Below, one piece after another: positions 8,336-25,810 of a stretch of DNA of 64,000 nucleotides. Position 1 is the stretch's first letter, and the number at the start of each line of letters is the position of its first letter. The position numbers were made by a program, and so were the translations under genes. A model generated the notes under the pieces. That model was given only the letters and a program-made list of their open reading frames with translations, had not been told where the DNA came from and did no database searches. Origin of the DNA: an uncultured Gammaproteobacteria bacterium (GTDB lineage Bacteria; Patescibacteriota; Patescibacteriia; Magasanikbacterales; UBA922); contig CAYSXR010000001.1 in assembly GCA_964435035.1 (NCBI GenBank), positions 55,259 to 119,258 on the forward strand. Reading direction: 5' to 3'.

Positions 8336-9097
8336 GTAATAGTTGACCCAGAGAGAATGCATACCGTAAGGCAAATATTTGAGAAAGTTGCGTACGAAGG
8401 ATGGAGTGGAAGAAAGGTGTATCTGTGGCTCAAGGAAATTAATTTCAAATCAAGAACAGGGAAATATATTACCGTCTCAAATTTATTCACGATTCTCAAA
8501 AACACCTTTTACTATGGTGTTTTTGAATATCCGACCGGGAGTGGCACATGGTACACCGGCAAATATGAATCACTGATTACAAAAGAGTTATTCGACAGAG
8601 TACAGCAGGTACTCAAAGAACATCAAACTAATGCAACCATGAAGAAGAACAAAGAATTCGCATTCACCAGAATGATGACCTGTGGAAATTGTGGTTCAGG
8701 AATCACTGCTGATGAAAAATTCAAACATCAGCAGAATGGGAATGTACATAGGTATGTATATTATGTATGTACGAGGAGTAAAGACCAAAACTGTAGGGGA
8801 GTGAGTATGAATGAAAATGAGGTGATAAAGCAACTAATTGAGATAATAGATAAGGTGAGTCTAGATAAATTAGGAATCAAGCAGAAGCTTGAAGCTGAGT
8901 TGGATCGGTATAGTCAGTTTAGGTATGCAGTGCTTGGGTTAGAGGAGAAGGAATTAGAGAAAAAGAAAGGTGTAGATATGAAGAAGTATGCAAAGTATAT
9001 ATTAGAAAAAGGAGGAGTTCAGGAGAAAAGAGAGTTATTTTTTAATATTAAGAATAAACTAGAATTAAAAGAAAATAAGATAATTTTGAAAACATAA
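8336..9097 (+). pseudogene. 5'-truncated large serine recombinase: recombinase domain, zinc ribbon and coiled-coil are present, but the N-terminal resolvase catalytic domain is absent
   Basis: ERMHTVRQIFEKVAYEGWSGRKVYLWLKE...ILKNTFYYGVFEY matches the recombinase domain. CGNCGS...YYVCTRSKDQNCRG matches the zinc ribbon. The frame is closed by a stop at 8333 with no catalytic Ser domain upstream. Confidence 0.55.
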
Positions 9098-9172
9098 ATA
9101 AGAACTTCTTATAGTCAACTTTGATTGACCAGACTGGTAGGGCGTAGTAGAATCCAGAGTATAATATAAGAT

Positions 9173-11038
9173 ATGTTCTTAAAAAAGATAGTGATTGTTA
9201 ATTTTAAAAGTTGCAGAATTATCGTCCAGGATTTTTCTGAAGATAAGCCGAATATATACATAGGACCAAATGATTCAGGTAAGAGCGTTATTCTTGAGTC
9301 TATAGGTTGCATACTCAATAACAAGAAATTGGATTTTGAGTCAACAGGGAAGATAACTTCGGATGTCTCTAATACTCCAATTGATGAGTTACAATTTAAT
9401 AATTTATTCGTCACACTAAATCTTCCTATTTTTAAGTATGACCCGACATCGATTTATATAATTGGTTTTTTTGAATGTGAAGAATCAGATTCAAAAGAAT
9501 TTTTTGATGAAAATGCATCTAATCATCTTAAATGGAGTAGAGAAAGTTTTTCAGGTAATGATATAGTAATTTTAAAAAAATACTGTATTCAGCAAGAAAA
9601 TGGAGCTACTTTTTTATGTACGAAAGATAGTACTGATCCTTCGACCACTAAAGAATTGTGGAAACAGACTAAAACTGTTCTTGCAGGACTGACAAAGCAA
9701 TTAGGTATCGAAAAAGACGAAATTGATAATGAAAATGGAACTGGACCATTCAAAAATATAGAAGTACTCAGAGCTATTTATGCGAAAAGTGTAACTGAAT
9801 TGTGTTGGAGTGAATATCTTGATTATACTAAGGATTTAAAGACACTGTTCCCCATATTCAGATACTTTGATGCTAAAATTTCAATGGATGATGTAAAATC
9901 TATAGCTAAAGATACTTTGGCGGAAAAAATAGCCCCACATAAAGAAAAAATTGCTAAAGAAGCTGAAAAGATTAGTAAGGATGTAAGCGATGAAATAAAC
10001 AAGGATCTAAAAGAATTATCTGAAAAATTATTTGCAGATTTAGACTCGGTAAAAAGTATACAAATGGGGGTTAATTTTAATATACAGGAAAATATTTCAG
10101 ATGTTATTGTTCAAAAGTCTTCTAGTGATGGTGACATCAAATTAGATTCGCAGGGTGATGGTATTAAAAAACAAATATGGCTTGCCTTAATAAAATGGAA
10201 AAGCATGCAATCTATAAATGAGGGAGAGAAAAGCAAAAAAATGATTTGGTGTTTTGACGAGCCTGAAATACATTTATTTCCAAAAGCACAACGAAATTTA
10301 TTCACTGATATTAAAAATATATCAAAAGGAGTAGTTCAAAGTTTTGTCTGTACACATTCAACGATTTTTATTGATAAATTCGATATTGATTCAATACGAT
10401 TAGTTTCTCTTGAAAATCAATATTCTGTAGTATCTTCTTGTAAAGATGTTTCTGATATCCACTCTTCTTTATGTGTTAAAAATAGCGATATACTATTTCA
10501 TGATAAATTTTTTGTGGTCGAGGGTGAGACTGACATGCTCTTAATGCCACATTTTTATAAACTACACTTTGGTAGAGATATCAAAGAAGATAATATTCAA
10601 TTAATACATCTAGGGGGTAAAGATAATAGAAAGAAAAACTTAGAAATTTTTAACCAAATTTTGGAAGGTTTTAAGAAGCAAGATGATCTTGTTAATTATT
10701 TTTTCGATGGGGACTCGGCAATTCCTGCTACTGATAATGTATGTGTGATAGGTAGGTATGATATGGAGGATAGTATTTCTGATGAAATTTGGGTAAAACT
10801 TGTGAAAGAATCTTGTGATTTTGATATAACCACCTCTGATTTGCAAGAAATAAGAAGTTGTTTGGGCACCGAGCGTGATAAAAAATTTCATAAGTTATTA
10901 TCTAATCTTCTTGCGTCTAAGAATTCTCCAAAGTATTTACCGTCGAAAGGGCAAACTTTGGCTAATGAGTTAATTAAAATAATAAAGGCCGAACATGTGC
11001 CTAAAGAAATTTTAGAATTCTTTAAAAAAATAAAATAG
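9173..11038 (+). CDS. OLD-family ATP-dependent nuclease (ABC-type ATPase plus C-terminal Toprim), with a GajA/class-2 OLD-like architecture
   Basis: Walker A GPNDSGKS near the N-terminus, Walker B IWCFDEPEIHLF, Toprim VVEGETD plus DGDS. 621 aa, about 27% GC. Confidence 0.65.
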   Translation: MFLKKIVIVNFKSCRIIVQDFSEDKPNIYIGPNDSGKSVILESIGCILNNKKLDFESTGKITSDVSNTPIDELQFNNLFVTLNLPIFKYDPTSIYIIGFFECEESDSKEFFDENASNHLKWSRESFSGNDIVILKKYCIQQENGATFLCTKDSTDPSTTKELWKQTKTVLAGLTKQLGIEKDEIDNENGTGPFKNIEVLRAIYAKSVTELCWSEYLDYTKDLKTLFPIFRYFDAKISMDDVKSIAKDTLAEKIAPHKEKIAKEAEKISKDVSDEINKDLKELSEKLFADLDSVKSIQMGVNFNIQENISDVIVQKSSSDGDIKLDSQGDGIKKQIWLALIKWKSMQSINEGEKSKKMIWCFDEPEIHLFPKAQRNLFTDIKNISKGVVQSFVCTHSTIFIDKFDIDSIRLVSLENQYSVVSSCKDVSDIHSSLCVKNSDILFHDKFFVVEGETDMLLMPHFYKLHFGRDIKEDNIQLIHLGGKDNRKKNLEIFNQILEGFKKQDDLVNYFFDGDSAIPATDNVCVIGRYDMEDSISDEIWVKLVKESCDFDITTSDLQEIRSCLGTERDKKFHKLLSNLLASKNSPKYLPSKGQTLANELIKIIKAEHVPKEILEFFKKIK

Positions 11039-11047
11039 GTTTAAACT

Positions 11048-11587
11048 GTGAAAGAAAAGAATTTTCAAAAGATGTTTGACGTGGATAGGCTCGAGTATAA
11101 TCTGAGAATATCGTCATTATATTTAACAGCCTATGAACTCTTAAAAAGTTCAATAGTGGACAGGCTTGTTAGTTTTTTTTCAGATTTTAATTATAAAGAT
11201 GGTAAGCCTGTAAAAACACTTGAATATAAAAATGAGCTTAATAAATTTGATAAAAATGATAAATTTAGAGCTTCATGTCTATGGCTTCATGATATGAAAG
11301 CCTTAGATATGAAGGATGTAACTGAAATTCTAAAAATTAGAGAACATAGAAATGAAATTGCTCATGAACTAGCAAAATTTTTGATAGATGATACGCAAGA
11401 GATCGATATAAATAAATTCCACAGTATCAATAATTTATTAAAAAAAGTTGATGTTTGGTGGATTATTAATTTCGAGATGACTATTATGCCAGACTTTAAT
11501 ATTAATTCAGAACAAGGTGTAAATGAAGTGGAATCTGGTAATATGCTCCTTTTGGAATATTTAATATCAAAAGTTAAAATAAGTTGA
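11048..11587 (+). CDS. hypothetical protein (179 aa), probably co-transcribed with the OLD-family gene
   Basis: 9-bp gap from the upstream gene and the same AT-rich composition. No motif recognised. Confidence 0.4.
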   Translation: MKEKNFQKMFDVDRLEYNLRISSLYLTAYELLKSSIVDRLVSFFSDFNYKDGKPVKTLEYKNELNKFDKNDKFRASCLWLHDMKALDMKDVTEILKIREHRNEIAHELAKFLIDDTQEIDINKFHSINNLLKKVDVWWIINFEMTIMPDFNINSEQGVNEVESGNMLLLEYLISKVKIS

Positions 11588-11645
11588 ATAAAGTTCAAGA
11601 AATGTAATGTAGTTTTAAGGATATTCAGTAAAATTAATAACAAAA

Positions 11646-11846
11646 CAAAAACACCCGAATTCGGGTGTTTTTAGGAGGGGATGACTAGCGGTCACCCTCC
11701 AGGGTGTGTCCAACAGTGTGCACCACCACGGTCCAGATAATTACACCTACAGTCAACCAAGGGATTTTATAGGGGTATTTTTAGGTAGTGAGGGATGCCT
11801 CTCGGTCGGGGGTCAGTTTCTATGGGAAATGAGACAAATGAGACAG
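11646..11846. repeat. Dispersed ~200-bp repeat, copy B (hairpin aaaaacacccgaattcgggtgttttt at 11646-11672; ends ...aatgagacaaatgagaca)
   Basis: Shares the hairpin, the 'gatgactagcggtcaccctccaggg-gtgtccaacagtgtgc' block, 'ctacagtcaacc', 'ctctcggtcgggggtca' and the terminal tandem 9-mer with copies A, C and D. Confidence 0.6.
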
Positions 11847-11919
11847 TTTATAAGATAGGTGAAAAAGAGCTAATTTAAGCAAATTTTGCTAGGTTGAGTC
11901 AAATTATTGCATAAATACC

Positions 11920-11948
11920 TTGACAAAATCATTAATATATGGTATACT
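11920..11948 (+). promoter_or_regulatory. Consensus promoter TTGACA-17-TATACT, followed by a 10-bp perfect inverted repeat (gtacaggcac...gtgcctgtac, 12012-12057) in the leader
   Basis: Seen directly. The downstream RBS AAGGAG is at 12101 and the ATG at 12114. Confidence 0.4.
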
Positions 11949-12113
11949 CCTTTGTTGAATATTTACTATATAGTTCTTTAATAAAATCTCAGATATTACT
12001 TTAAGGTATCGGTACAGGCACGTTCTATATCAAAAATGGTATGAAGTGTGCCTGTACTTAGGCCCATATCCTTTCACGAGGTGTCACAAAGGCACCATTC
12101 AAGGAGTGAAGTC

Positions 12114-12338
12114 ATGTCCGAGACCAAGAAGAATTTCGAGAAGCGCGTGTTCGAGGCCACTGGCGTCGAGCTGTCCCAGATCCCGGTCGGAGAACCCAAC
12201 GATGCTCTGCTGCACATCATGTGCAAGAGGGGTAACGTCTACATCGTGGCGTATGGCTATCCTGACTATCAGGATGACAACGGCAACGATGTCTGGGAGT
12301 CCCGTCCGGAGAACTTCCGGGTCGTGACGCTCTCGTAG
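12114..12338 (+). CDS. Small high-GC hypothetical protein (75 aa), compositionally foreign
   Basis: Strong RBS and about 58% GC in a roughly 35% background. The hairpin ggggaaggt...accttcccc (12396-12422) lies downstream. Confidence 0.4.
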   Translation: MSETKKNFEKRVFEATGVELSQIPVGEPNDALLHIMCKRGNVYIVAYGYPDYQDDNGNDVWESRPENFRVVTLS

Positions 12339-12558
12339 TTTCAACTCTCCTAGTCCGCTAAACCCGGACGACTAGATAGGAGATCGTACAATCATGGGGA
12401 AGGTTTTTTAGTCACCTTCCCCATTGCCTCTACCGTTGAAAACGGTACTGATGAGTCCTTAACTAGAGGACGAAAGGTAAAAAGAGCCAGTCATTCTGGT
12501 CTTTTTTGTTTTAAGTTTTTCTGTTACCATAGATTTACCTTACTTAATTAAAATAAAT

Positions 12559-13581
12559 ATGGAGAGTTTTGGTCAGTATAGACCTGAGTCAGTAACTAAA
12601 AGACCTAATGATTTTAAAGAGCAGGTAAGAGTGGTGTATGAAAAGATGTTTCCTGAGATAATTAACCAAAATTTGGAAGACAGGGAAAAAATGCAGACGG
12701 ATGTTCTTGAGAGAGAGCGTGCTTTGGAAGCTAAAGACTTTTTTGATGCACTTAAAGGGTATGGTATTGATACTTCTATTATTGAGATTACTGAGAATAA
12801 TTTATTAAAAATATCTGTAAAAAATCATTTTTCAGAAAGACGGCTACCAGAAGGGTATGCGTATAAAGGTGGCGCGGCTCGGTCATTACTTTTACGGAAT
12901 TTACGAATTGACGCAAAGAATATTCCACGAGATGTCGATGTTGTTCGAATGGTAGAAAACGAACCAAACGAGGGTGACGATAATAGAGTTTCTCAAGAAT
13001 TTATGCCTGAGGATTTTGAGACGGGATATGGGGTAGAAAAGATGTTGGATCAGGACGAGTATTTTGAATCACGGGACTTAACACTCAATGAAGTTTTAGC
13101 TACCGATGAAGAAATTATAGCAACACCTACATGTGTTTTGGATAACGTGAGACGTATTATACGGATTACAGAATATGAAAAAGATGAGAATGGGAGAGTG
13201 AATTCAAAGATGCTTGCTAAAGTGCTAAGACTATATGCAGAATCAATTCATAAATATGGTGATGCACAAATTGAGGGTGTGGATGATTGGCAATTTGAAG
13301 AAGCGTTTATCTCTCCATTTTGGTGTGCATTACAACTTGACCGAGCTTTTAATATAAATAGGCAGGTGGCGGTAGAATATATAGCACAATTAAAAGAACG
13401 TCGTCAGATTCCATTGGATATTGAAACTCCTGAACAGGCAGCTGAATATTTTCTTTCGTCAATTACAGGAAATTTTTATTATAGACATGCGGAATTAGAG
13501 AAGTTTGAATTGGAAGATAAATGGGAAGAGGAATTTGAGCGTTTACCTAAATTTGAAGGTAGTTCTCGAAGAAGTATTTAA
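12559..13581 (+). CDS. Nucleotidyltransferase of the CCA-adding/poly(A)-polymerase head-domain type (divergent)
   Basis: YKGGAARSLLLRNLRIDAKNIPRDVDVV resembles the GGaVRDxLLG...DxD head-domain signature. 340 aa, low GC. Confidence 0.35.
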   Translation: MESFGQYRPESVTKRPNDFKEQVRVVYEKMFPEIINQNLEDREKMQTDVLERERALEAKDFFDALKGYGIDTSIIEITENNLLKISVKNHFSERRLPEGYAYKGGAARSLLLRNLRIDAKNIPRDVDVVRMVENEPNEGDDNRVSQEFMPEDFETGYGVEKMLDQDEYFESRDLTLNEVLATDEEIIATPTCVLDNVRRIIRITEYEKDENGRVNSKMLAKVLRLYAESIHKYGDAQIEGVDDWQFEEAFISPFWCALQLDRAFNINRQVAVEYIAQLKERRQIPLDIETPEQAAEYFLSSITGNFYYRHAELEKFELEDKWEEEFERLPKFEGSSRRSI

Positions 13582-13601
13582 CTTATATTAAGTTAAATAT
13601 T

Positions 13602-13804
13602 AAAAAACACCCAAAAACCGGGTGTTTTTTAATGGGGGGATGACTAGCGGTCACCCTCCAGGGGGTGTGGAACAGTGTGCACACCCTCAGTCCAGAATTT
13701 TTCATCTACAGTCAACCATGGGCTTTTTCGAGGTAGTTTTGAAAGGGTAGGGGAACCCTCTCGGACGGGGGTCAATTTTTATTAAAATGAGACAAATGAG
13801 ACAC
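13602..13804. repeat. Dispersed ~200-bp repeat, copy C
   Basis: Hairpin aaaaaacacccaaaaaccgggtgtttttt, then sequence nearly identical to copy A through ...aatgagacaaatgagacac. Confidence 0.65.
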
Positions 13805-13826
13805 AGAATACTGTATTTAAATGATA

Positions 13827-13852
13827 AGCCCTCTCCTTGTTTGGAGAGGGCT
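13827..13852. terminator. Perfect 10-bp stem hairpin (agccctctcc-ttgttt-ggagagggct) at the 3' end of the minus-strand Hsp70-like gene
   Basis: Seen directly, 34 bp past the stop of the 13886-15169 (-) gene. Confidence 0.45.
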
Positions 13853-13885
13853 CTGTCTTGCCACGTGGACGCGTTTCTTGGCTTC

Positions 13886-15169
13886 TCAGCCGTTACGCGC
13901 ACCATAGGTAGCGAGACCATACGCGACTGATGCGAAGGCGTCACCTGTCACGACCTTGCCTGTTTCGGGGAACAAGTCCTTGAGCCTGCGTTGAAACGCT
14001 GGAACATGGGACGTGCCACCCGTCACGAAGACGTGGTCGATTTCGTCAGGGATGATGTCATGCTTGTCGAGGAACTTTTCCAGCTCCGAGATGATGCCAT
14101 CGATGACTTGTAAGGTATAGGCTTCGAATTCATCGCGAGTCAACGTCGTGTTGACGTCGAGGTCGTCCTCCTCGAAACGAAGCGCAGTGCTATCGGTTCC
14201 GGTGAGGTTTTTCTTTGCCTGCTCGATCTCCCTGAAGAGTTGCAGACCGTAGTTACCCTGCACGAGGGTCATGAGCCGTTTGATCGCCTTGGGATTGTCC
14301 GAATGACGTTGGATCTCGATGATCGTGTTGATCGTCTTTCGGTCCCGAAGCAGGGGGATCAGGTGCGGTCGCCGGAGTTGGTAGGTGATCGCATGCGGCA
14401 TGGGCATCACGTTGCCGAACATGCTCTTGTAGGTGCTGTTGCGCCCGAAGAGATGTGCCAACTTTTCCCACATGATGGCCGAATCGAAGTCGTCTCCTCC
14501 CAATCGAGTACCGGCTACACCGATGACGTCGATGGTTCCTGACGGCATGACTTTGGCCAGGGTGAAGTCGGATGTTCCTCCGCCGATGTCGCACACCACG
14601 ACCGTTTGAGGGTCGGTGTTGTGAAGCTTGTGGGCGTAGGCGTAGAGCGCACCGACCGGTTCTTCGCAGAGCGTAATCGGACCAAAGCCAGCTCGTGCTG
14701 CGGCTCGGGTCAAACGCTCTTTTGCGATCTGGTGCATTTCCGGATCGTTCGAGAACCTGACAGGATGTCCGAGGACCACCTCCTTAATCTCGATCCCCGT
14801 CTCATCGAGGACTCGTCGCTTCAGAAGGTTGAGGAAGGTATAGACCAAATCCTCCGCGTTCATCTGCTTGCCCTGGATGATGGTGTGGTCGAACGTTCTA
14901 CTCGACAACGTCGACTTGATCGAGCGGAGGTAGCGACCATTGTCAGGATCGTCCATGTACTCTCTGGTAGCCGCTTCTCCGATCAGGATTCGTGATGTTC
15001 CATTTTCAAAGAAAAGGACAGTTGGAGTTGAGTTTACGCGTGTATCTCCTTGAGAAAAGGTGAGGGGTACCGTAGTGGTGCCATCGCTCACGGCGACAAC
15101 AGTATTGGTGGTTCCGAAATCCAGACCGATTACCTTTTTCACTTTCTTGTTCCTTGCGTGTATGAACAA
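13886..15169 (-). CDS. Hsp70-family ATPase, nucleotide-binding domain only (YegD-like), high-GC foreign gene
   Basis: IGLDFGTTNT, VVCDIGGGTSDF, LGGDDFD and VFVTGGTSHVPAFQ match Hsp70/actin-fold NBD motifs. There is no substrate-binding domain. GC is about 57%. Confidence 0.6.
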   Translation of the reverse strand: MFIHARNKKVKKVIGLDFGTTNTVVAVSDGTTTVPLTFSQGDTRVNSTPTVLFFENGTSRILIGEAATREYMDDPDNGRYLRSIKSTLSSRTFDHTIIQGKQMNAEDLVYTFLNLLKRRVLDETGIEIKEVVLGHPVRFSNDPEMHQIAKERLTRAAARAGFGPITLCEEPVGALYAYAHKLHNTDPQTVVVCDIGGGTSDFTLAKVMPSGTIDVIGVAGTRLGGDDFDSAIMWEKLAHLFGRNSTYKSMFGNVMPMPHAITYQLRRPHLIPLLRDRKTINTIIEIQRHSDNPKAIKRLMTLVQGNYGLQLFREIEQAKKNLTGTDSTALRFEEDDLDVNTTLTRDEFEAYTLQVIDGIISELEKFLDKHDIIPDEIDHVFVTGGTSHVPAFQRRLKDLFPETGKVVTGDAFASVAYGLATYGARNG

Positions 15170-15400
15170 AAGCTACTCTAGCATAATAAGTGAAAAAATC
15201 AAGGCTAATGCTAGAATTAAGAATTTCTAGTAGATTAAGATTTTTTGGCTAGTTTATCATTGTTTTACCGATAAAAAGTTGACGAAAAGCTATGTATAAA
15301 GTATAATTTTCGTATTCTAAAGATATATGAAAAGATTGGTATTAGAAAAGTTTTTACTATGTTAACGCAATAAAACCGTCCAATTAGGCGGTTTTTCTAT

Positions 15401-17239
15401 ATGCTAAATGATAATGTTAAAAAAATAATGGTTGATACTGCTAGAAAGCATATCAAGCAAACGCAAGAAAAGATTAGCGAAGCCGTAGAAATTCAGGAGG
15501 AACGTTTGCGTACTAAAAATAAAAGAACAATTGGCTTAATGCCAAGTGATGTATTAGTTGAAGCAAAATTAACAAGTATTCTCCAAGAGCAGGTTGAACA
15601 TTTAAAGCAGCTATTTCCATCACCTTACTTTACATATTGTGAATTCGAAACAGATTCAGGAGATAACAAGAGACTGTATTTTGGAAAATTTTCATTTCGT
15701 GATCAGGATATTTATTCGTGGGTTACTCCGATTGCAACACTTCGTTTTGAACAGTTAGGTCGTGTAAGTTATAAAAGACCTGATAATGCGATTAAGCATG
15801 GAACCTTACTAAAAAGAGATCAGTATCTTATTGTTGATGGTAAATTAGTTTTTTTAGCAACTGAAGAAAAAGGAATACCAAGAGAGTTGGTATATCAAGA
15901 ACATTTTAGTCAAAAAAAAGAAGGATTCATATTGCCCGAAGTAATTGAGCAAATGGAAAAAGCCCAGGATCAGATTATCCGTGCAGGATATCGAGGCCCC
16001 TTAGTAATATCTGGCCCTGCAGGTTCTGGAAAAACAACTTTAGCTTTACATCGAGTAGCATTTTTAATGCAATCACCTGACAGTGCTGAATATTTTCCGC
16101 ATGATAAAATTTTAGTTTTTGTTCAAGATGAAAACACCAAAGATTATTTTTCACATCTCCTTCCTGAACTTGGGATTAAAGGTGTAGAGATTGTAACATT
16201 TACTGGGTGGGCATTGCAGGTATTAAGATTAAATGGTGTAGTTATCGAAAAAATAAATAATACGCAGGATACTAATCTCGAAATTTATAGGTATAATAAA
16301 TTAGAAATTCTAAAATTGGAAAAAAATATAGAGTGGAAAAAGGGAAGTCTTTTTTCTTTTTTGGATAAAGTTTACAAAAATACATTATCAGCAAAAGAGT
16401 ATAGTATTTTTGTAAAACAAAAAAAAGAAAAAAAGCTTGATCGTATTGATTTAATTTTTTTACTCACAGCAAAATATAATTCTTCAAAAGAATTTTCAGT
16501 ATTTCATGAAGTATACGAAGAATTAAAAAATGGCAGTTATCGCAAGAAGAAAATTGCACAGCCAACTCTGTATAATCTGCTCATTATTGATGAGTTTCAG
16601 AACTACCTTCCTGAAGAATTAAAAATACTGAAGTCATGTCTTAATAGTAGACTTAATTCAGTTGTCTACACGGGCGATTTCAATCAACAAGTAATTTCAG
16701 GCTCGATTAAGAATTGGAATGAAATTGATGAATTGGTGGATATTGAAAGAATGATTATTTTACAAAAAGTATATAGAAATACGAAGCAAATTTTATTATA
16801 TATTCGTTCTTTGGGATATGAAGTTAATATTCCGGAACAGTTAAAAGAGGGAGAAGAGGTTAGAGAGATTAAAACAAATAGTTGGAAAGAAGAAATTGAG
16901 TTTATCACTAGTAAAGATGAATCTCAGGATATGGTTATCGGTGTTTTAGCGTTTAATGAAAATTATCTAAAACCCTTTAAAGATTATTTTTCCAATAAAT
17001 CAAATATTCATATAATGACTATTAGTGAGTCACAGGGTGTGGAGTTTGAGTCAACATTTTTGGTAGGAATTGACGCTAGTATCTTTGATGTAAGTTTATT
17101 TCCAACACAAATGCAGGAAGAGAGAAAAAAAATGATAAAAGATTTGTTATATGTAGGCCTCACCCGTGCCATGAGTGGTATGCATGTTTGTGGTAAATAT
17201 TCTCTACGTGAACTATTTAAAGAATTTAATCCAAGTTAG
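15401..17239 (+). CDS. Superfamily-1 UvrD/Rep/HelD-like DNA helicase
   Basis: GPAGSGKTTLALHR (Walker A), LLIIDEFQNY (motif II), YVGLTRAM (motif VI), and a ~190-aa N-terminal extension as in HelD-like proteins. Confidence 0.55.
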   Translation: MLNDNVKKIMVDTARKHIKQTQEKISEAVEIQEERLRTKNKRTIGLMPSDVLVEAKLTSILQEQVEHLKQLFPSPYFTYCEFETDSGDNKRLYFGKFSFRDQDIYSWVTPIATLRFEQLGRVSYKRPDNAIKHGTLLKRDQYLIVDGKLVFLATEEKGIPRELVYQEHFSQKKEGFILPEVIEQMEKAQDQIIRAGYRGPLVISGPAGSGKTTLALHRVAFLMQSPDSAEYFPHDKILVFVQDENTKDYFSHLLPELGIKGVEIVTFTGWALQVLRLNGVVIEKINNTQDTNLEIYRYNKLEILKLEKNIEWKKGSLFSFLDKVYKNTLSAKEYSIFVKQKKEKKLDRIDLIFLLTAKYNSSKEFSVFHEVYEELKNGSYRKKKIAQPTLYNLLIIDEFQNYLPEELKILKSCLNSRLNSVVYTGDFNQQVISGSIKNWNEIDELVDIERMIILQKVYRNTKQILLYIRSLGYEVNIPEQLKEGEEVREIKTNSWKEEIEFITSKDESQDMVIGVLAFNENYLKPFKDYFSNKSNIHIMTISESQGVEFESTFLVGIDASIFDVSLFPTQMQEERKKMIKDLLYVGLTRAMSGMHVCGKYSLRELFKEFNPS

Positions 17240-17240
17240 T

Positions 17241-18320
17241 ATGAAAGAACTCACCGTCTCGCTTCCTCATGGAAAAAAACAAAAGATTTATATAGGCTCA
17301 AATTTGAGTGAGCGTCTGGTGGAAATTACGCGAAAAGAATATGACCGAGTATTTTTAGTAATTGATAAAGAGGTATATAAGAGGTATAAAGTTTTTATAC
17401 AGAATTTAATTTCAAAGATAAAACCAGTGTCAATACATGTGATAAGAGCAGGTTCAAAAGATTTATCAGAAAGTGTAAAACTTATTAATGCAATGGTGGA
17501 GGCAGAGTTGAACCGAAATAGTTGCGTGCTTGCATTTGGAGGAGGATATGTGGGTGATTTGGTAGGATTTTGCGCGTCAATTTACATGCGGGGTATTGAT
17601 ATGCTGTATTATCCGACTACGTTTATTTCCCAGGCTGATACTGTATTAGGAAAAGTTGGTGTCAATTATGATAATCATAAACATATTTTAGGAAGTTTCT
17701 TTTGTCCACGTTACACATTTTGTGATGAAGAGTTCTATCCCAAGAATGTATCAGAAAGTTTTTTATACGGACTAGTCGAAGTATGGAAGCATACACTCAT
17801 CAAAGAAGACAAGATTGTTTCGGACTACGTTGATGGTGCATTATTTCATAAAGAACTTCCTCCATTTGAAACAATCACATATCGATCAGTTGCAGCAAAG
17901 AAATTTTTTGTGCAAAATGATTTTCATGACACGAAAGGTCTGCACAAAGCTTTGAGTCTCGGACATACACTTTCAAATCACTTAGAATCTTTGGCAGAAA
18001 TACACCATGGTGTGGGAGTATTGATCGGTATTATTTTTGATACATTTTTATCAAAAGAACTAGGGCTTATTGATGATAAAAAGATGGGTTCAATATTGCG
18101 AATAGCGTCTCAGTTTAAAGAAAATTTTACAATTCCTCGGTCTATAGCGAGTATACTTAAAAGTAAGAATTTTTTAAGACGTGTTAAGTATGACAAGATC
18201 AATTCCCATAGTACCTTTACATTTGTTTTGCCCACTACCAAAGGTTATGTGATTAAAAAAGATATATCTGAGATAATGGTACAAAATGCGATTCGGTCTC
18301 TAAATAAATTTTTGCTATGA
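17241..18320 (+). CDS. Sugar-phosphate cyclase of the 3-dehydroquinate-synthase superfamily (DHQS/DOIS/EEVS-like)
   Basis: AFGGGYVGDLVGFCASIYMRGIDMLYYPTTFISQADTVLGKVGVNY closely matches the DHQS NAD/phosphate-binding core. GHTLSNHLE and HHGVGV match the metal ligands. Confidence 0.6.
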   Translation: MKELTVSLPHGKKQKIYIGSNLSERLVEITRKEYDRVFLVIDKEVYKRYKVFIQNLISKIKPVSIHVIRAGSKDLSESVKLINAMVEAELNRNSCVLAFGGGYVGDLVGFCASIYMRGIDMLYYPTTFISQADTVLGKVGVNYDNHKHILGSFFCPRYTFCDEEFYPKNVSESFLYGLVEVWKHTLIKEDKIVSDYVDGALFHKELPPFETITYRSVAAKKFFVQNDFHDTKGLHKALSLGHTLSNHLESLAEIHHGVGVLIGIIFDTFLSKELGLIDDKKMGSILRIASQFKENFTIPRSIASILKSKNFLRRVKYDKINSHSTFTFVLPTTKGYVIKKDISEIMVQNAIRSLNKFLL

Positions 18321-19435
18321 AAATACACCTAAAATCTCCAATATCTGACAGTTGGAGACAAGATGCTTTAAAAAAAATAAAAGACATTCAGGAAAAGAAT
18401 CCAGGCATTTCTATAACTAAAGAGCTACTGGGTGGAGCAACGAATACTCTTAAATATTTAGCAACATTTGATGGAGCTAAACTTTTTATTAAAATCGGAG
18501 AAAAAGTCGAACGTGAAAAAGAAGTGTATAAGCAAATAGAAGATAATGATATTTTTTTAAAAAACGTAAATCTGCAAAATGAATCCTCAGATCTTTTAGT
18601 GCTTCCTTATTATGAAGGGGTTTCTTTAGAAGAAAAAACATTACAAAATCCTTCAGAAATAGCTAAGCATACTAAATTAATTATAGAAGTTTTACAGAGA
18701 ACGTTTTCAAAGTATTGGGTGAGGAACATAAAAAAGAACGGAGGTAGTGATTTTGGAGTGAGTTTGTTGAAAAAGCGCTATCTTGAATTAAATAATCATA
18801 TTAATGCAATTTCATTCGAAAGTGGTGATGAATATAGTTTTGATGGTTTTGCTACTCGTCCAGTAGTGATACAGAAAAATAACAAAGAAATTAAGCTCCC
18901 CTCAATAAAGCAGATGACGGAGAAAATTCTCAAACTACTTGATAAACTTAAGCCTTATGATGGGTACGGGATATTAGGTGATTTTCAACCGCCAAATATT
19001 CTGATTTCAAAGGAAGGAATAAAAATAGTAGATATTTCAAATGTTGTAGATGCGGGCGACATTGCGTTCGATATTGGAAAATTTTTCAATTACTATAATA
19101 GATTTTTTTCAATTGCAGTAGTACGTGATGGTCATAAGAATAATAATTCTCATAAAATTACTATTAAAAATGGTATCATATATGTACATCAAGAAAAAGA
19201 TCATTACTCATATGCAGATAAAAAAATCATTGAAACGGTGGAAGAGGATTTTTGTGTGCATGTTGCTAAAGAATTGAATGATTACACAATTTCAGACCGA
19301 GTAAAATTGTATAAATTTGTTGTTTCTCTACTAACCATTAAAAGACATCTACAGTTCGATGGGTTAGATGAAATGCTTATTGGAAATCTTGTTGACGCAT
19401 ATTACGAGATACATAGAAAAGTTTTACATATATAA
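18317..19435 (+). CDS. APH/choline-kinase-fold small-molecule kinase
   Basis: Glycine-rich N-lobe, catalytic ILGDFQPPNILIS and DISNVVDAGD...DIG (Brenner-type motif and DFG-like). Confidence 0.45.
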   Translation: MKIHLKSPISDSWRQDALKKIKDIQEKNPGISITKELLGGATNTLKYLATFDGAKLFIKIGEKVEREKEVYKQIEDNDIFLKNVNLQNESSDLLVLPYYEGVSLEEKTLQNPSEIAKHTKLIIEVLQRTFSKYWVRNIKKNGGSDFGVSLLKKRYLELNNHINAISFESGDEYSFDGFATRPVVIQKNNKEIKLPSIKQMTEKILKLLDKLKPYDGYGILGDFQPPNILISKEGIKIVDISNVVDAGDIAFDIGKFFNYYNRFFSIAVVRDGHKNNNSHKITIKNGIIYVHQEKDHYSYADKKIIETVEEDFCVHVAKELNDYTISDRVKLYKFVVSLLTIKRHLQFDGLDEMLIGNLVDAYYEIHRKVLHI

Positions 19436-19436
19436 T

Positions 19437-20702
19437 ATGACAAGAAGAATTGAAGGATCGCTTGTTTCTCACGAGCATACAAATCCTAAACAAGAAATAA
19501 CAACACTTGAGAGATTAGAGGCAAATGCTGAAAAATGGGTGCTTTCATTTCTTGAAAATGAAGGTATAACTGGAGCATCAGTCACTGAAATTAATAAAAC
19601 AACAAAGAGCGTTTTTGGGTCAGTTGAATTTGGAGAAAAAAAACACTTCTTTAAAATTTCTGATGCAGAAAAAATTGCCTATGAGCTTGAAGGCTACAAG
19701 ATTGCGGAGGACTACAAACATGAGACGATCCACCATCATTATTTTGATGCAGAAGAAGGTTATGGACTATACATACAAGATTACTGTGATGAAGTAAGTG
19801 TTGATTCGGGTCTTGCAATACATGAGATAAATAGCGCTCTTGGCAAATCACCCGAAGAACAAAAAAAGATTGAGGATAAATTGGCAGAGGTATATCGAAA
19901 AATTCATGAAATATTTGAATCAACGCTTACTGAGGATAGATATGTTTTGTCAGGTAGGAACGATGCATTCTTCCATGAACGACTTAAAAAAGATGGACGT
20001 ATTGATAGCTATTATGGAAAAAGGAGTTTTAAATTTGAAGATTCAAAAAAAGATATCGTTGCTGAGGAGTTATTTACGTATTTAATTAGCTGCAATGGAG
20101 AAGACGGAATTGTCATACAAGATGTTATTGAAAAAGCACAACATGATCTTGATCCTGAAAAACCTCGCGTATTCGTGGTGTCCCAAGGAGACTTAACAGA
20201 GAGTAATGTTAGTGTAGAAGGAACTTTTTTTGACTTTGAAGCAGCTGGTTTAAATTCATTGATTCAGGAATTAGCTATTTATTTGGTATATACATATGTG
20301 AATGGTCACTACATCACCCCAAAGTATTCAAAGTCTACTGATCAAACATTTTCAAAGCAATTCGAACAATCAATTACAACCGAATATGTTCTTGATGAAG
20401 AAAGTAAAAAAATGGATATAGTAATGAATTATCCATTACCTGAATTAAAGCGAGCCCTCATCGAACGTTTTACAGATATTGTAATAGCTCCTATAGAAAG
20501 AAAATTAAATCCAGCTGAAAGTACTCAACTCGTTAAAGAATTACAATCTGCAATTGCATTGCGTCTGATTGCGGTTAAGAATATACTCAAATTTGAAGAA
20601 AAGGACGTATTGGTAACGCTCGGACTTTTGAGCAAATTATGTAAGGCGGGAGATGAAAAAACTTTAGAAGAATTTATAAAACAACGTTTTGTTAGTATAT
20701 AG
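19437..20702 (+). CDS. Second kinase-like protein (APH fold, more divergent)
   Basis: VFVVSQGDLTESNVSVEG...FDFEAAG resembles the hGDlhpgNvlv...iDfE catalytic loop. The ATG at 19437 is preferred. Confidence 0.3.
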   Translation: MTRRIEGSLVSHEHTNPKQEITTLERLEANAEKWVLSFLENEGITGASVTEINKTTKSVFGSVEFGEKKHFFKISDAEKIAYELEGYKIAEDYKHETIHHHYFDAEEGYGLYIQDYCDEVSVDSGLAIHEINSALGKSPEEQKKIEDKLAEVYRKIHEIFESTLTEDRYVLSGRNDAFFHERLKKDGRIDSYYGKRSFKFEDSKKDIVAEELFTYLISCNGEDGIVIQDVIEKAQHDLDPEKPRVFVVSQGDLTESNVSVEGTFFDFEAAGLNSLIQELAIYLVYTYVNGHYITPKYSKSTDQTFSKQFEQSITTEYVLDEESKKMDIVMNYPLPELKRALIERFTDIVIAPIERKLNPAESTQLVKELQSAIALRLIAVKNILKFEEKDVLVTLGLLSKLCKAGDEKTLEEFIKQRFVSI

Positions 20703-20704
20703 TT

Positions 20705-21685
20705 ATGAACATCACTTCACTTATTGATAAAAATAAAAAAACTATTTTGAGCCTTGATCTGGATAACACGATAGTAAATCGAAAGAAAGGGGATAATTAT
20801 GTACTACCTGCTCTTAAGAAAGCTCTCGAAAGGATAATGAAAAGCGAATCGATTATCCCTGTTATCAATACAGGACGCGACATTATCGGATATCGCGCAT
20901 TCCAGCGAGAAGTGTTGGATATCGGCGATGCAGTTCTTGGATCAGGAACATTGATAGTTCATGACAATACGATAGATTTAAATGAAAAAGGTTTTATTGA
21001 TGTCGTGTGTATTGAAATTCTGGAGAATGCCGTGAAAAAAGGTAAATTGCCTTTTATAGATATAACTCATGCAGAAGGTAGGATCATTGTATATAATGAA
21101 CAGGAAGTTAAAGATCTTAACGCAGAAGACCTATTTTATTCTCAGACACCAAGAACATGGTTTGAAACCAAACAACCGATAACTAAAATTAATGATTATA
21201 TACGTCCAAAACACATTTTCCGTATTGAAATCCCAGTCTTTAAAGATCATATAGAAAATCTCTATAATGAACTAGTTAATAAATCAGATGATGCATTGGT
21301 AGATTTAAATAAGTTTTTGCATTCCGAGATTGATATACGGAAGTTTGTCCTTAACAGAAAAGTATTTTTTAATGATTCATTTCAAGGAAGAGTAATTTTT
21401 GGAAGGTTCCAGAAAAGCGAATCTGAGATGAATAAAGGTTTTGGTCTCCAAAAATGGTTAGCCTCCAAAGAGTTTACACCTCTAGATTTTAATATCTTCC
21501 ATATAGGAGATAAAGATAAAGGTTTAGTGAATGACGTACTTATTAAAGATCATGTACCCAATGCCCATATTATAATGGTTAATAGTAGGACAAAAAATAA
21601 TCCGGCTGTAAGTTTGTATCTAGAAGGAGATACTGATAAAAGCATTGTAGAATTTATAACAAGTATTGTTGAAGCCTATGTTTAA
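20705..21685 (+). CDS. HAD-superfamily phosphatase-like protein
   Basis: N-terminal LSLDLDNTIV (DxDxT motif I) and a length of 326 aa. Confidence 0.35.
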   Translation: MNITSLIDKNKKTILSLDLDNTIVNRKKGDNYVLPALKKALERIMKSESIIPVINTGRDIIGYRAFQREVLDIGDAVLGSGTLIVHDNTIDLNEKGFIDVVCIEILENAVKKGKLPFIDITHAEGRIIVYNEQEVKDLNAEDLFYSQTPRTWFETKQPITKINDYIRPKHIFRIEIPVFKDHIENLYNELVNKSDDALVDLNKFLHSEIDIRKFVLNRKVFFNDSFQGRVIFGRFQKSESEMNKGFGLQKWLASKEFTPLDFNIFHIGDKDKGLVNDVLIKDHVPNAHIIMVNSRTKNNPAVSLYLEGDTDKSIVEFITSIVEAYV

Positions 21686-22247
21686 AAAAAAGATATTTTC
21701 TCAAAACGATTTACATTGGATTAATTACTTTATTATCAAAGAAGATCGTGAGAAGATGGGGGAAAAAATTAAAGGGACTCGTACAGAAAAGCTATTTGCA
21801 TTTAAGAGTGGAGACTATTCACATATACAAGAAATAGTAGGATGGGTTGCTGACATATTAGATACTGACCCTATCGTAATTGTCCCATATCCATCGACTA
21901 ATCCAAATAAAGATAAAAGTATTCAACTTCCGTATGTAGTAGCAGGGGAACTCGCAAAAATAAACAAGAATTGGATTGATGGATCAGGATATCTTAAGCG
22001 TAAATTTGAGTTACCTAAAAATACCAGAGATGTTAATTCGCAGTATGAAAGTTTGGAATTTGAATTAAACAAGGAATTTAAGAATTTTCCTATTCTACTA
22101 CTTGATGATGTGACCACCTCTGGTAGTTCACTTGAAGCAGGGCTAAAGGTAATCCGAGAGAAAAGTGAAAAGGGACAAGAAATTAGCAGTCTTGCGGTGG
22201 CAAAGAAGGTTTTCTTGAAAGAAGTTCCACCAGGAGCTTTATATTAG
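21678..22247 (+). CDS. Type I phosphoribosyltransferase-domain protein
   Basis: PILLLDDVTTSGSSLEAG matches the PRPP-binding motif. Confidence 0.4.
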   Translation: MFKKKIFSQNDLHWINYFIIKEDREKMGEKIKGTRTEKLFAFKSGDYSHIQEIVGWVADILDTDPIVIVPYPSTNPNKDKSIQLPYVVAGELAKINKNWIDGSGYLKRKFELPKNTRDVNSQYESLEFELNKEFKNFPILLLDDVTTSGSSLEAGLKVIREKSEKGQEISSLAVAKKVFLKEVPPGALY

Positions 22248-22251
22248 AATT

Positions 22252-25650: not shown

Positions 25651-25728
25651 AAAAACACCCAAACGGGTGTTTTAATGTGTCCTTCAGGACTATGACTAGC
25701 GGTCACCCGGGAGGGGTGTCCAACAGTG
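25651..25728. repeat. Partial copy D of the dispersed repeat (hairpin aaaaacacccaaacgggtgtttt plus the 'tgactagcggtcacccgggaggggtgtccaacagtg' block), abutting the 3' flank of tRNA-Leu
   Basis: Shares about 75 bp with copies A, B and C, then runs directly into the tRNA instead of the remainder of the repeat. Confidence 0.55.
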
Positions 25729-25810
25729 TGCTCAGGAGAGGACTCGAACCTCCAAGCCTTTCGGCGCTACCACCTCAAGGTAGTGCGTCTACCAATTTCG
25801 CCACCTGAGC
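25729..25810 (-). tRNA. tRNA-Leu (anticodon GAG), type II with long variable arm, CCA not encoded
   Basis: Reverse complement is GCTCAGGTGGCGAAATTGGTAGACGCACTACCTTGAGGTGGTAGCGCCGAAAGGCTTGGAGGTTCGAGTCCTCTCCTGAGCA. The cloverleaf folds, with anticodon loop TTGAGGT and T-loop GGTTCGAGTCC. Confidence 0.8.

Follow-up and report, generated by a model that had tools for sequence, protein, structure and literature searches.

We suggest that the OLD-family gene and the 179-aa open reading frame (ORF) behind it, at 9173-11587 of the window (the whole 64,000-nucleotide stretch of DNA analyzed here), are most likely two unrelated single-gene modules and not a dedicated two-component system. The two genes are probably transcribed together, with one promoter-like site before the OLD gene and one terminator-like hairpin after the 179-aa ORF. 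Given that the helicase farther downstream is HelD-like and that the pairing of the OLD gene with the 179-aa ORF is not conserved, we regard the locus as an ordinary mosaic defense island and not as a new system. The unit consists of the following features.

9125-9153, forward strand: promoter-like site TTGACC-17-TAGAAT, 10 of 12 matches in a consensus scan, putative in function
9173-11038, forward strand: OLD-family ABC-ATPase and Toprim nuclease gene, 621 aa, with all catalytic motifs intact
11048-11587, forward strand: 179-aa ORF, predicted to be all-helical, with a HEPN R-x4-H motif (R101, N102, H106), a predicted RNase
11646-11673, no strand assigned: palindromic, GC-rich, terminator-like hairpin that ends the unit and begins repeat copy 1

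A preliminary description had assigned the full OLD architecture to the gene at 9173-11038, and this assignment holds. Pfam places AAA_15 on residues 1-400 (4.8e-32) and OLD-like_TOPRIM (PF20469) on residues 441-495 (2.9e-10), and the motifs GPNDSGKS, DEPE, EGETD and DGD lie at residues 31, 362, 450 and 512. Across 30 members of the OLD subfamily, the ATPase residues of Walker A (G31/K37), the signature (Q327-G328-G330), Walker B (D362-E363) and the H-loop (H395) are invariant, as are the Toprim residues E450, D512 and D514. The GC content of about 27% first given for this gene needs correction: the OLD gene measures 30.3%, and the value of 27.6% belongs to the 179-aa ORF. The promoter-like site lies 20 nt 5' of the OLD start codon. 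The only other contig with this OLD protein has the same arrangement, from upstream of the OLD gene through a 340-aa ORF that lies beyond the hairpin. The exact proteins are restricted to one NCBI contig and to Logan contigs, and a collection of species-representative genomes contains no identical locus.

Set against the defined classes of OLD systems (PMC7049728, PMC10568477, PMC12392090), the gene is best read, judged by its gene context, as a helicase-less OLD of Class 1 type. Like the Class 1 OLDs (P2 Old, Ts OLD 6P74 and Vc OLD), it is accompanied here by neither a helicase nor a reverse transcriptase nor a separate AriB, and Ts OLD (6p74) is its best and sole significant match among solved structures, with E-values of 2.9e-7 for the single sequence and 6.9e-13 for the subfamily profile. 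The similarity to Ts OLD is distant, however, with a single-sequence match of about 150 residues and a best profile-match stretch of about 58, and the protein is longer (621 aa versus 528 aa). Whereas Class 1 genes are described as isolated (PMC10568477), this one lies in a defense island and is closely followed by another gene, its immediate neighbors being a recombinase remnant upstream and the 179-aa HEPN-like ORF downstream. A comparable setting is the P2 'old-tin' hotspot, where an OLD gene lies beside a second defense gene, considered independent of it (PMC9122126, PMC10952713); here, too, the OLD gene directly adjoins another putative defense gene. The neighbor is a different gene, though, and the surroundings are a tRNA-adjacent island and not a prophage, in a genome that is probably from Patescibacteria, as the best helicase and OLD hits suggest.

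The remaining classes compare as follows. PADLOC scores the protein with its Old (1.2e-31) and AriA (3.5e-31) models ahead of the best GajA model, a partial match at 3e-22. The likeness to PARIS (AriA/AriB, Class 4, including fused forms) lies in the full-length AriA model, which aligns to residues 1-400. However, the nuclease half matches OLD-like_TOPRIM, with no Pfam DUF4435 match, and there is no separate AriB gene; no AriB model is among the 25 PADLOC matches listed, and a PDB sequence search gave neither Gabija nor PARIS chains against the OLD protein at E <= 0.01. For Class 3 (retron) OLD, the difference is that Pfam, PADLOC and NCBIfam detected no reverse transcriptase domain (nor DUF4435) in the ORFs of 8-21 kb, and Rfam scans detected no retron RNA families.

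The 179-aa ORF starts 9 nt past the OLD stop codon, as had been noted. From its sequence we predict a HEPN-fold RNase that belongs to a large, uncharacterized family of solitary genes. The motif H-R-N-x-x-A-H is invariant among seven close homologs, and across 82 diverse family members R101 and H106 never vary and the conservation of N102 is at least 90%; Y60, W79 and an 'ASC' stretch (A75-S76-C77, before W79) are further conserved positions specific to the family. Sub-threshold Pfam matches recur across members, to RiboL-PSP in 16, Cthe_2314 in 11, MAE_28990 in 6, HepT in 4, Apea in 2, Csm6 in 2 and LA2681 in 1, and the best E-value of the HEPN matches is 1.8e-4. Such matches to DUF4145, which we take to be a member of the HEPN clan, occur in 18 members. 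For the 179-aa protein itself, the models of Pfam, NCBIfam, PADLOC and PHROG all stay below threshold, a difference from the known stand-alone HEPN RNases and toxins (HepT of HEPN-MNT, RiboL-PSP, Cthe_2314-like and ApeA-like). The family profile had no matches among PDB sequences, and Foldseek against the PDB and viral structures returned only a weak Csm6 match and nothing significant; an hhalign comparison of the family with two single HEPN proteins of related loci gave no signal and was uninformative. Unlike HepT of HEPN-MNT, the ORF has no adjoining MNT or antitoxin gene. With few exceptions, the 1,397 cluster representatives of the family have a single domain and are 175-215 aa long.

One of the two proposals in the preliminary description was that the OLD gene and the 179-aa ORF form a new two-gene system, and here the comparative evidence is unfavorable. 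We examined 79 genome loci with OLD relatives, and none has a member of the 179-aa family within +-7 kb. Conversely, 61 loci of the HEPN family lack an OLD partner: no OLD relative occurs in the flanks of 57 metagenome loci, which were retrieved with the 7-sequence alignment as query because the 82-sequence alignment was too diverse, and no OLD gene occurs in four contexts of the closest homologs (L002-L004 by DNA search, a JGI contig by its gene table only). Genes of the 179-aa family are usually solitary, with neighbor gaps of >50 nt or flanking genes on the opposite strand, and no neighbor recurs in the 57 metagenome loci and the four closest-homolog contexts.

The genes downstream of OLD vary within the subfamily and are mostly PD-(D/E)xK nucleases, or none. 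Among 52 genome loci of the same OLD subfamily, a tightly coupled same-strand gene (<=30 nt) follows in 24, and these partners are of many unrelated kinds. In ten loci the partner is a protein of 343 aa whose D134...E150-x-K152 motif is invariant, and in three it is DUF2130, a PD-(D/E)XK family according to PMC3424549; three more partners of the DUF2130 cluster lie 43-73 nt downstream of subfamily OLD genes. The closest OLD relatives each have a different downstream gene. Relatives at 63% identity are followed by a gene of 97-99 aa and then by a 497-aa PDDEXK_1/RNase_H_2 gene (two contexts), and relatives at 56-57% identity by a gene of 293-295 aa. At locus L045, a PD-Lambda-3_B / Aga_HEPN-like protein lies 8 nt downstream of OLD, a HEPN-type protein other than the 179-aa one. 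Other tight neighbors are Type I S and M subunits, an nSTAND3-Mrr protein and leucyl-tRNA synthetase. In 13 of the 52 loci the downstream neighbor is on the opposite strand, and those OLD genes therefore stand alone, which indirectly favors an OLD gene that would act by itself.

Given that predicted nucleases form the largest groups of these tight partners, the subfamily may have a swappable partner slot. The OLD gene and the 179-aa HEPN gene would then be a genuine two-gene system, in which a sensor/ATPase-nuclease chassis carries an exchangeable downstream effector slot that is usually filled by a PD-(D/E)xK nuclease and here by a HEPN RNase. Consistent with this are the 9-nt gap, the shared promoter-like site and terminator, the frequency of tight downstream genes with predicted nucleases as their largest groups (the 343-aa and DUF2130 proteins above), the PDDEXK_1/RNase_H_2 gene that follows a small ORF in two contexts, and the L045 protein. 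We nevertheless consider such a system rather unlikely, because in the loci examined the pairing is confined to this genome, the HEPN family is typically solitary, the 13 subfamily OLD genes just mentioned have no partner, and many tight neighbors, down to leucyl-tRNA synthetase, belong to other systems. That the subfamily is the core of an unclassified two-gene kind, with an OLD-HEPN variant outside Classes 1-4 at this locus, is improbable. If it were true, the effector would usually be the 343-aa D...ExK family, DUF2130 or a PDDEXK_1/RNase H-like protein, replaced here by a HEPN RNase.

The other proposal was that the OLD gene and a helicase downstream are a Gabija or Class 2 OLD pair (GajA and GajB) that later insertions have split apart. 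The SF1/UvrD-type helicase is indeed where it had been placed, some 3.8 kb downstream; its start lies 3,813 nt past the 179-aa stop and 4,362 nt past the OLD stop.

15279-15307: promoter-like site of the helicase gene, a consensus match, putative in function
15401-17239, forward strand: HelD-like SF1 motor protein, 612 aa, recognized from NCBIfam, the PDB, an AF2 model and its context

A comparison with GajB had been suggested, and it points elsewhere: the NCBIfam model HelD_BACSU matches the helicase at 3.4e-35, and the PADLOC GajB models match it partially and at best at 1.2e-13. The HelD_BACSU score of 121 bits is below the equivalog cut-off of 419, so we call the protein HelD-like and not a HelD equivalog. 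In a PDB search the best match is B. subtilis HelD (6wvk_H, 1.2e-24), with PcrA at 6e-11; residues 61-270 align to residues 85-296 of B. subtilis HelD. The AF2 model (pLDDT 86) predicts an N-terminal antiparallel coiled coil (helices 4-45 and 48-71) and, between these helices and Walker A at residue 205, a beta domain. Class I HelD from B. subtilis is built in the same way, its long antiparallel hairpin of helices at the N terminus being followed by the beta domain and then the SF1 core, but it is longer (774 aa). Across 32 members of the helicase family S106, W107 and P110 are invariant, and the putative DWR site reads Y-S-W-V-T-P in this protein and S-W-[VI]-T-P in the family. We placed this site by eye from the DWRAP sequence and presume that it corresponds to the HelD motif. 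At this putative position D and R are absent, and the DWR motif of HelD has been reported to be absolutely conserved (PMC8655204).

The helicase family has more than 1,000 full-length relatives of about 610 aa, the closest named ones in Patescibacteria, and three contexts of helicase relatives contain no OLD gene. At 17241, 1 nt beyond the helicase stop codon, a sugar-cyclase/kinase operon begins with a DHQS-like gene. The best reading is that the helicase is a HelD-like RNA-polymerase-associated motor, of a type that is common in Patescibacteria, at the head of a separate operon and with no functional tie to the OLD gene.

The locus does resemble Gabija in the OLD-type ATPase-Toprim architecture and in the presence of an SF1 helicase in the neighborhood, and a split pair would agree with the partial GajA and GajB matches and with the clearly inserted DNA between the two genes. 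We find it extremely unlikely. Class 2 OLD/Gabija is defined by a helicase immediately downstream (PMC7049728), and here the 179-aa ORF occupies that place. The helicase is 4.4 kb from the OLD stop in another operon, coupled to downstream genes of biosynthetic type; it is far closer to HelD than to GajB or PcrA, has a HelD-type N-terminal arm in its model, and belongs to a family for which the examined contexts show no link to OLD and whose closest named members are in Patescibacteria. On the OLD side, GajA models score below Old and AriA, and no Gabija chain matches the subfamily profile at E <= 0.01. A helicase-profile search of the OLD loci found no helicase partner of its own for any subfamily OLD. 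The same search recovered GajB-like genes at L041 and L061, each after a separate 580-aa GajA-like gene, and these serve as its positive control. Both proposals essentially run into the refuting conditions that the preliminary description had itself named.

The island around these genes is larger than first described. It is AT-rich, as had been reported, but it extends beyond 8336-17239: it begins at about 8.2 kb, ends at tRNA-Leu(gag) and spans about 17.5 kb, with a GC content of 34.9% versus 41% in both flanks. Its other features are as follows.

8357-9097, forward strand: truncated large serine recombinase (Pfam Recombinase 3.4e-15, Zn_ribbon_recom 1e-7)
11647-11823, forward strand: repeat copy 1, made up of the hairpin, a 40-nt box (ATGACTAGCGGTCACCC...GTGTCCAACAGTGTGC) and about 100 nt in common with copy 2
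11920-11948: strong promoter-like site upstream of the high-GC patch
12000-12510, forward strand: high-GC patch (50% GC over 12000-12500) with a 74-aa ORF, a hammerhead-like motif and a terminator-like hairpin
12114-12338, forward strand: the 74-aa ORF, with an AAGGAG ribosome-binding site
12425-12479: the hammerhead-like motif
12559-13581, forward strand: 340-aa ORF with no family match in Pfam, PADLOC, NCBIfam or PHROGs
13603-13782, forward strand: repeat copy 2, a direct repeat of copy 1
13886-15169, reverse strand: Hsp70-like (YegD/PRK11678-like) ATPase gene, 54% GC, compositionally foreign to island and genome
24340-25623, forward strand: Shedu (SduA_C) defense gene at the right end of the island (Pfam SduA_C 8.6e-30)
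25662-25810, reverse strand: repeat copy 3, hairpin and 40-nt box (25662-25731), the interval also spanning the adjoining tRNA-Leu(gag)
25728-25810, reverse strand: tRNA-Leu(gag), the right boundary of the island

The recombinase is a remnant, as had been recognized: it retains the Recombinase and zinc-ribbon domains, lacks the N-terminal resolvase catalytic domain and matches positions 265-497 only of the 651-position phrog_95 integrase profile. It lies 180 nt from the upstream methyltransferase gene and is probably a relic of the element that delivered the left part of the island. The view that the DNA between OLD and the helicase was inserted is borne out by the two repeats of about 160 nt and by the GC-rich patches of 50% and 54%. 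Copies 1 and 2 are 77% identical over 159 nt (11665-11823 versus 13624-13782), and copy 3 abuts the 3' end of tRNA-Leu(gag). We considered the repeats as structured RNA and rejected this, with folding z-scores of +0.5 to -1.9 on either strand and Rfam matches that were weak and centered on the hairpin. Pfam, NCBIfam and PHROGs assign the 74-aa ORF to no family, and a 96-aa ORF (12048-12338) that contains its frame is negative in PADLOC. The island, which has the OLD and 179-aa genes at its left end and also carries the Shedu gene, was probably assembled by successive insertions. The dead recombinase bounds it on the left, and tRNA-Leu(gag) bounds it on the right.

A Class 1 OLD gene alone suffices for defense in the case of Vc OLD (PMC12392090), and P2 OLD is a tRNase (bioRxiv 10.64898/2026.07.10.737580). 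By analogy with these systems, the ABC ATPase and dimerization region of the OLD protein may detect nucleic acid that is aberrant or comes from phage, and may govern the oligomeric state, and this would license the two-metal Toprim site to cut. Its target would be DNA if the enzyme resembles Ts OLD and Vc OLD, or tRNA, the reported substrate of P2 OLD. The 179-aa protein is predicted to be a metal-independent RNase that uses its R-x4-H dyad, possibly in an abortive-infection or toxin-like role. The OLD gene might instead have no defense role: its ATPase could serve in housekeeping or in the cell cycle, as archaeal Cran1 does, or the gene could be a relic in decay. A non-defense OLD class is known in archaea (PMC12796447), and the recombinase next to the gene is dead. 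We think this very unlikely, because the reading frame is intact with every catalytic residue conserved, the GC content is foreign, the gene lies within a variable island, and its relatives are surrounded by restriction-modification, Lamassu, DRT, TIR and Gabija genes, with a patchy distribution across Patescibacteria, Bacteroidota and other phyla.

As two single-gene modules side by side, the locus calls for a routine defense-island annotation, comprising a helicase-less OLD, a Shedu gene and a HEPN gene of the solitary kind in a probable candidate-phyla-radiation genome. The helicase represents a divergent HelD-like clade, apparently without the DWR motif, whose closest named members are Patescibacteria proteins. 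The pairs of OLD with PD-(D/E)xK nucleases that recur in related loci fall outside the four-class OLD scheme. The solitary HEPN-motif proteins, with roughly 1,400 cluster representatives and no Pfam or PADLOC model, are a candidate single-gene abortive-infection family.

The AT-rich tract runs from ~8.2 kb to tRNA-Leu(gag) and extends beyond the region covered by the preliminary description, with a GC content of 34.9% against 41% in both flanks. It opens with a recombinase remnant, the OLD gene, the 179-aa gene and a first repeat copy. A 50%-GC patch, a 340-aa ORF, a second repeat copy and, on the opposite strand, a 54%-GC Hsp70-like gene come next. The helicase is next, with a DHQS-like gene 1 nt beyond it; two APH-like kinases, a HAD-like phosphatase and a glycosyltransferase come after that. 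A Shedu gene, which the preliminary description did not include, lies directly ahead of the tRNA gene at the right end of the tract.

8357-9097, remnant of a large serine recombinase, reduced to its Recombinase and zinc-ribbon domains
9173-11038, OLD gene, 621 aa
11048-11587, 179-aa gene, predicted HEPN
11647-11823, 13603-13782 and 25662-25731, repeat module in three direct copies
12425-12479, + strand, hammerhead-like motif with a complete type III core by sequence
12559-13581, + strand, 340-aa ORF
13886-15169, - strand, Hsp70-like ATPase gene (NCBIfam PRK11678/YegD-like, 2.2e-52)
15401-17239, + strand, HelD-like SF1 helicase gene, 612 aa
24340-25623, + strand, Shedu defence gene (SduA_C, 8.6e-30)
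25728-25810, tRNA-Leu(gag)

Of the 651 positions of an integrase profile, the recombinase remnant, recognized as such earlier, matches only 265-497, so that the catalytic domain has been lost. Between OLD and the helicase, the repeat and high-GC zone noted previously comprises a pair of direct repeats of ~160 nt (77% identity) along with two patches of high GC. The Hsp70-like gene looks like a recent foreign insertion, with its 54% GC in an island of ~30-35% and a genome of 41%. The 340-aa ORF has no profile match in Pfam, NCBIfam, PADLOC or PHROGs. By eye, and without profile support, it contains a G-G-A-A-R-S-L-L...D-V-D-V-V stretch that resembles the nucleotidyltransferase head motif of CCA-adding/poly(A) polymerase-type enzymes.

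The OLD architecture proposed in the preliminary description is borne out. AAA_15 (4.8e-32) covers residues 1-400 and OLD-like_TOPRIM (2.9e-10) residues 441-495, and the motifs GPNDSGKS (aa 31), DEPE (aa 362), EGETD (aa 450) and DGD (aa 512) are invariant across 30 aligned full-length relatives, so that the ABC ATPase and Toprim catalytic set is intact. The GC content of ~27% attributed to this gene is in fact 30.3%, and the lower figure is closer to that of the 179-aa ORF (27.6%). In PADLOC the Old (1.2e-31) and AriA (3.5e-31) models score above every GajA model (best 3e-22). Among solved structures, the sequence reaches only the Class 1 OLD of T. scotoductus (6p74; 2.9e-7, improving to 6.9e-13 with the subfamily profile), and no Gabija or PARIS chain was found at E <= 0.01. 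Together with proteins of ~620-640 aa at 35-64% identity it forms a well-defined subfamily, whose hosts are Patescibacteria, Bacteroidota, Chloroflexota, Gammaproteobacteria MAGs and one Asgard MAG. With neither a helicase nor a retron or AriB partner, the gene fits Class 1 of the published context-based scheme (PMC10568477, PMC12392090); the feature that defines Class 2 is absent at this OLD gene.

The 179-aa ORF starts with GTG 9 nt past the OLD stop, as the ORF map confirms. H-R-N-x-x-A-H is invariant in seven close homologs, and 82 diverse members show no variation at R101, H106, Y60 or W79 and at least 90% conservation at N102. R-N-x-x-x-H corresponds to the HEPN R-x4-6-H signature (PMC3710099). 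No curated model from Pfam, NCBIfam, PADLOC or PHROG reaches threshold for the family. Recurrent sub-threshold Pfam matches among the 82 members point to named HEPN families, namely RiboL-PSP (16), Cthe_2314 (11), MAE_28990 (6), HepT (4), Apea (2), Csm6 (2) and LA2681 (1), and to DUF4145 (18), which we take to be a HEPN-clan family. AF2 predicts an all-helical structure (pLDDT 84, pTM 0.80). The protein is likely a HEPN protein. A word-indexed search returned only six homologs. An exhaustive profile search recovered 1,397 cluster representatives, with E-values below 1e-10 for 946; almost every one has a single domain and a length of 175-215 aa (typically ~190 aa), and the genes are typically solitary. 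At one comparison locus (L002) two paralogs lie in tandem behind a ResIII/methylase system, and at another (L003) a family member overlaps an ion-channel-like gene by 4 nt.

The preliminary description had suggested that OLD and the 179-aa gene might form a two-gene system, and linkage was sought from both sides. A scan of species-representative genomes yielded 79 loci with OLD relatives, and the 179-aa-family profile found no member within +-7 kb in any of the 79. Conversely, no OLD gene occurs in the four contexts of the closest 179-aa homologs or in 57 metagenome loci of the family, which have no recurrent neighbour either; most family genes in these 57 loci lie more than 50 nt from their neighbours or between opposite-strand genes. 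The OLD + 179-aa pairing is unique to the source genome, because the searches from both sides found no linkage, and the two-gene proposal is not upheld. A single other contig carries this OLD protein, and its gene order is unchanged from a point upstream of OLD as far as the 340-aa ORF.

The downstream genes of the subfamily are heterogeneous. Of the 52 loci where the subfamily OLD is full-length, 13 have the next gene on the opposite strand and 15 have it on the same strand at more than 30 nt; in the other 24 it is tightly coupled (same strand, within 30 nt). Ten of the downstream neighbours are a 343-aa protein with invariant D134...E150-x-K152, and six form a DUF2130 cluster (three tight, three at 43-73 nt), a family classed as PD-(D/E)XK (PMC3424549). 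Others include Type I specificity and methylase subunits, an nSTAND3-Mrr protein, other ATPases, leucyl-tRNA synthetase and, in a single case (L045), a PD-Lambda-3_B/Aga_HEPN-like protein. The closest OLD relatives differ from the window too: at 63% identity, a 97-99-aa gene and a 497-aa PDDEXK_1/RNase_H_2 gene come after OLD, and at 56-57% identity a 293-295-aa protein does. The 343-aa PD-(D/E)xK partner (L006, L010, L019, L024, L026, L028, L033, L037, L054 and L063) spans Patescibacteria and Bacteroidota, with gaps of -10 to +14 nt. The DUF2130 partner occurs at L008, L009, L011, L016, L017 and L050.

The alternative proposal was that OLD and the SF1 helicase represent a Gabija-like or Class-2-OLD-like pair split by insertions. 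The helicase does start 3,813 nt past the 179-aa stop, in agreement with the ~3.8 kb given before. Its best NCBIfam match is HelD_BACSU (3.4e-35, under the equivalog cut-off) and among solved structures it is closest to B. subtilis HelD (6wvk_H, 1.2e-24, residues 61-270 against 85-296), with PcrA well behind at 6e-11. In the AF2 model (pLDDT 86), two long antiparallel helices (4-45 and 48-71) precede a beta domain and a Walker A at aa 205, and this predicted N-terminal layout is that of the HelD secondary-channel arm (PMC8655204). We call the protein HelD-like rather than HelD because the DWR motif, reported to be absolutely conserved in HelD proteins (PMC8655204), is apparently replaced by S-W-[VI]-T-P in this family (alignment A6; position placed by eye). 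At ~610 aa the family is also shorter than Class I-III HelD and may constitute an additional HelD class. The relatives of the helicase number more than 1,000; the top 120 are all full-length, with 43-54% identity, and the few of these that carry names are from Patescibacteria.

In three genomic contexts of helicase relatives the neighbours include RecQ, ribosomal-protein, RuvC and tRNA-synthetase genes, and OLD is absent. In the 79 OLD loci the helicase-family profile has two matches only (L041 and L061), both directly behind a 580-aa GajA-like gene of their own. These serve as a positive control, because they show that the search can pick up true Gabija pairs and that such pairs differ from the subfamily OLD. 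In these two Bacteroidota genomes the Gabija-like pair (L041 9241-12617, L061 9029-12405), a 580-aa GajA-like gene and an overlapping UvrD-like helicase, lies directly 3' of the subfamily OLD, so that two different OLD-type systems stand side by side. The window helicase also has its own strong promoter-like site (15279-15307; consensus scan, 11/12 matches). Its HelD-like character, this site and the contexts of its relatives argue against a split pair. The preliminary description stands at the level of domains, and neither of its system-level hypotheses is supported. The helicase heads an AT-rich, same-strand, operon-like run (15401-23433, +) that continues with a DHQS/AroB-like sugar-phosphate-cyclase (TIGR01357 1.9e-62, under cut-off), two APH-like kinases, a HAD-type phosphatase-like protein, a 193-aa ORF and a GT1 glycosyltransferase. 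It is possibly an operon of the cyclitol or sugar-phosphate kind, with an RNA-polymerase-associated motor encoded at its head.

Each repeat module starts with a palindromic terminator-like hairpin and a 40-nt box. Copies 1 and 2 have a further ~100 nt in common (77% identity), and the third hairpin and box directly abut the 3' end of tRNA-Leu(gag). The 17-mer ATGACTAGCGGTCACCC has three exact copies in 64 kb, with 0.01 expected by chance. The modules are probably junctions left behind as one insertion after another entered next to the tRNA gene. Folding z-scores of +0.5 to -1.9 give no convincing support for the repeats as structured RNA. The hammerhead-like motif lies 3' of a 74-aa high-GC ORF (12114-12338) and ahead of a terminator-like hairpin, and its core comprises UGCC-UC|U, stem I ACCGU/ACGGU, CUGAUGA, stem II GUCC/GGAC, GAAA and GGUA. 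Its MFE fold gives a three-way junction (z = -3.1). Against Rfam RF00008 it scores 28.3 bits, under the gathering score of 48.5, with an E-value of 8e-4 in 751 nt and 0.07 over the whole window. The motif may be a genuine ribozyme that processes mRNA, or the match may be due to chance.

The two genes, whose families show no linkage at other loci, lie between a promoter-like site (9125-9153) ahead of OLD and a terminator-like hairpin (11646-11673) past the 179-aa ORF. Ts OLD is a two-metal nuclease under ATPase regulation (PMC7049728), Vc OLD nicks DNA and suffices for defence by itself (PMC12392090), and P2 OLD is a tetramer that opens to dimers and cuts tRNA upon sensing ssDNA hairpins (bioRxiv 10.64898/2026.07.10.737580). 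By analogy with such characterised Class 1 enzymes, the OLD protein described here would be a self-contained sensor-effector, and the 179-aa protein would be an independent HEPN RNase module that shares its transcript by chance. The two may be likened to P2 old and tin, which are adjoining but independent genes (PMC9122126). That the subfamily instead has an exchangeable downstream nuclease slot, occupied here by the HEPN protein, seems to us improbable. The OLD + 343-aa and OLD + DUF2130 arrangements have no PADLOC model and lie outside OLD Classes 1-4. The OLD gene itself is a new, distant member within an already known OLD kind, and the HEPN-like gene adds a new member, at family level, to a known superfamily.
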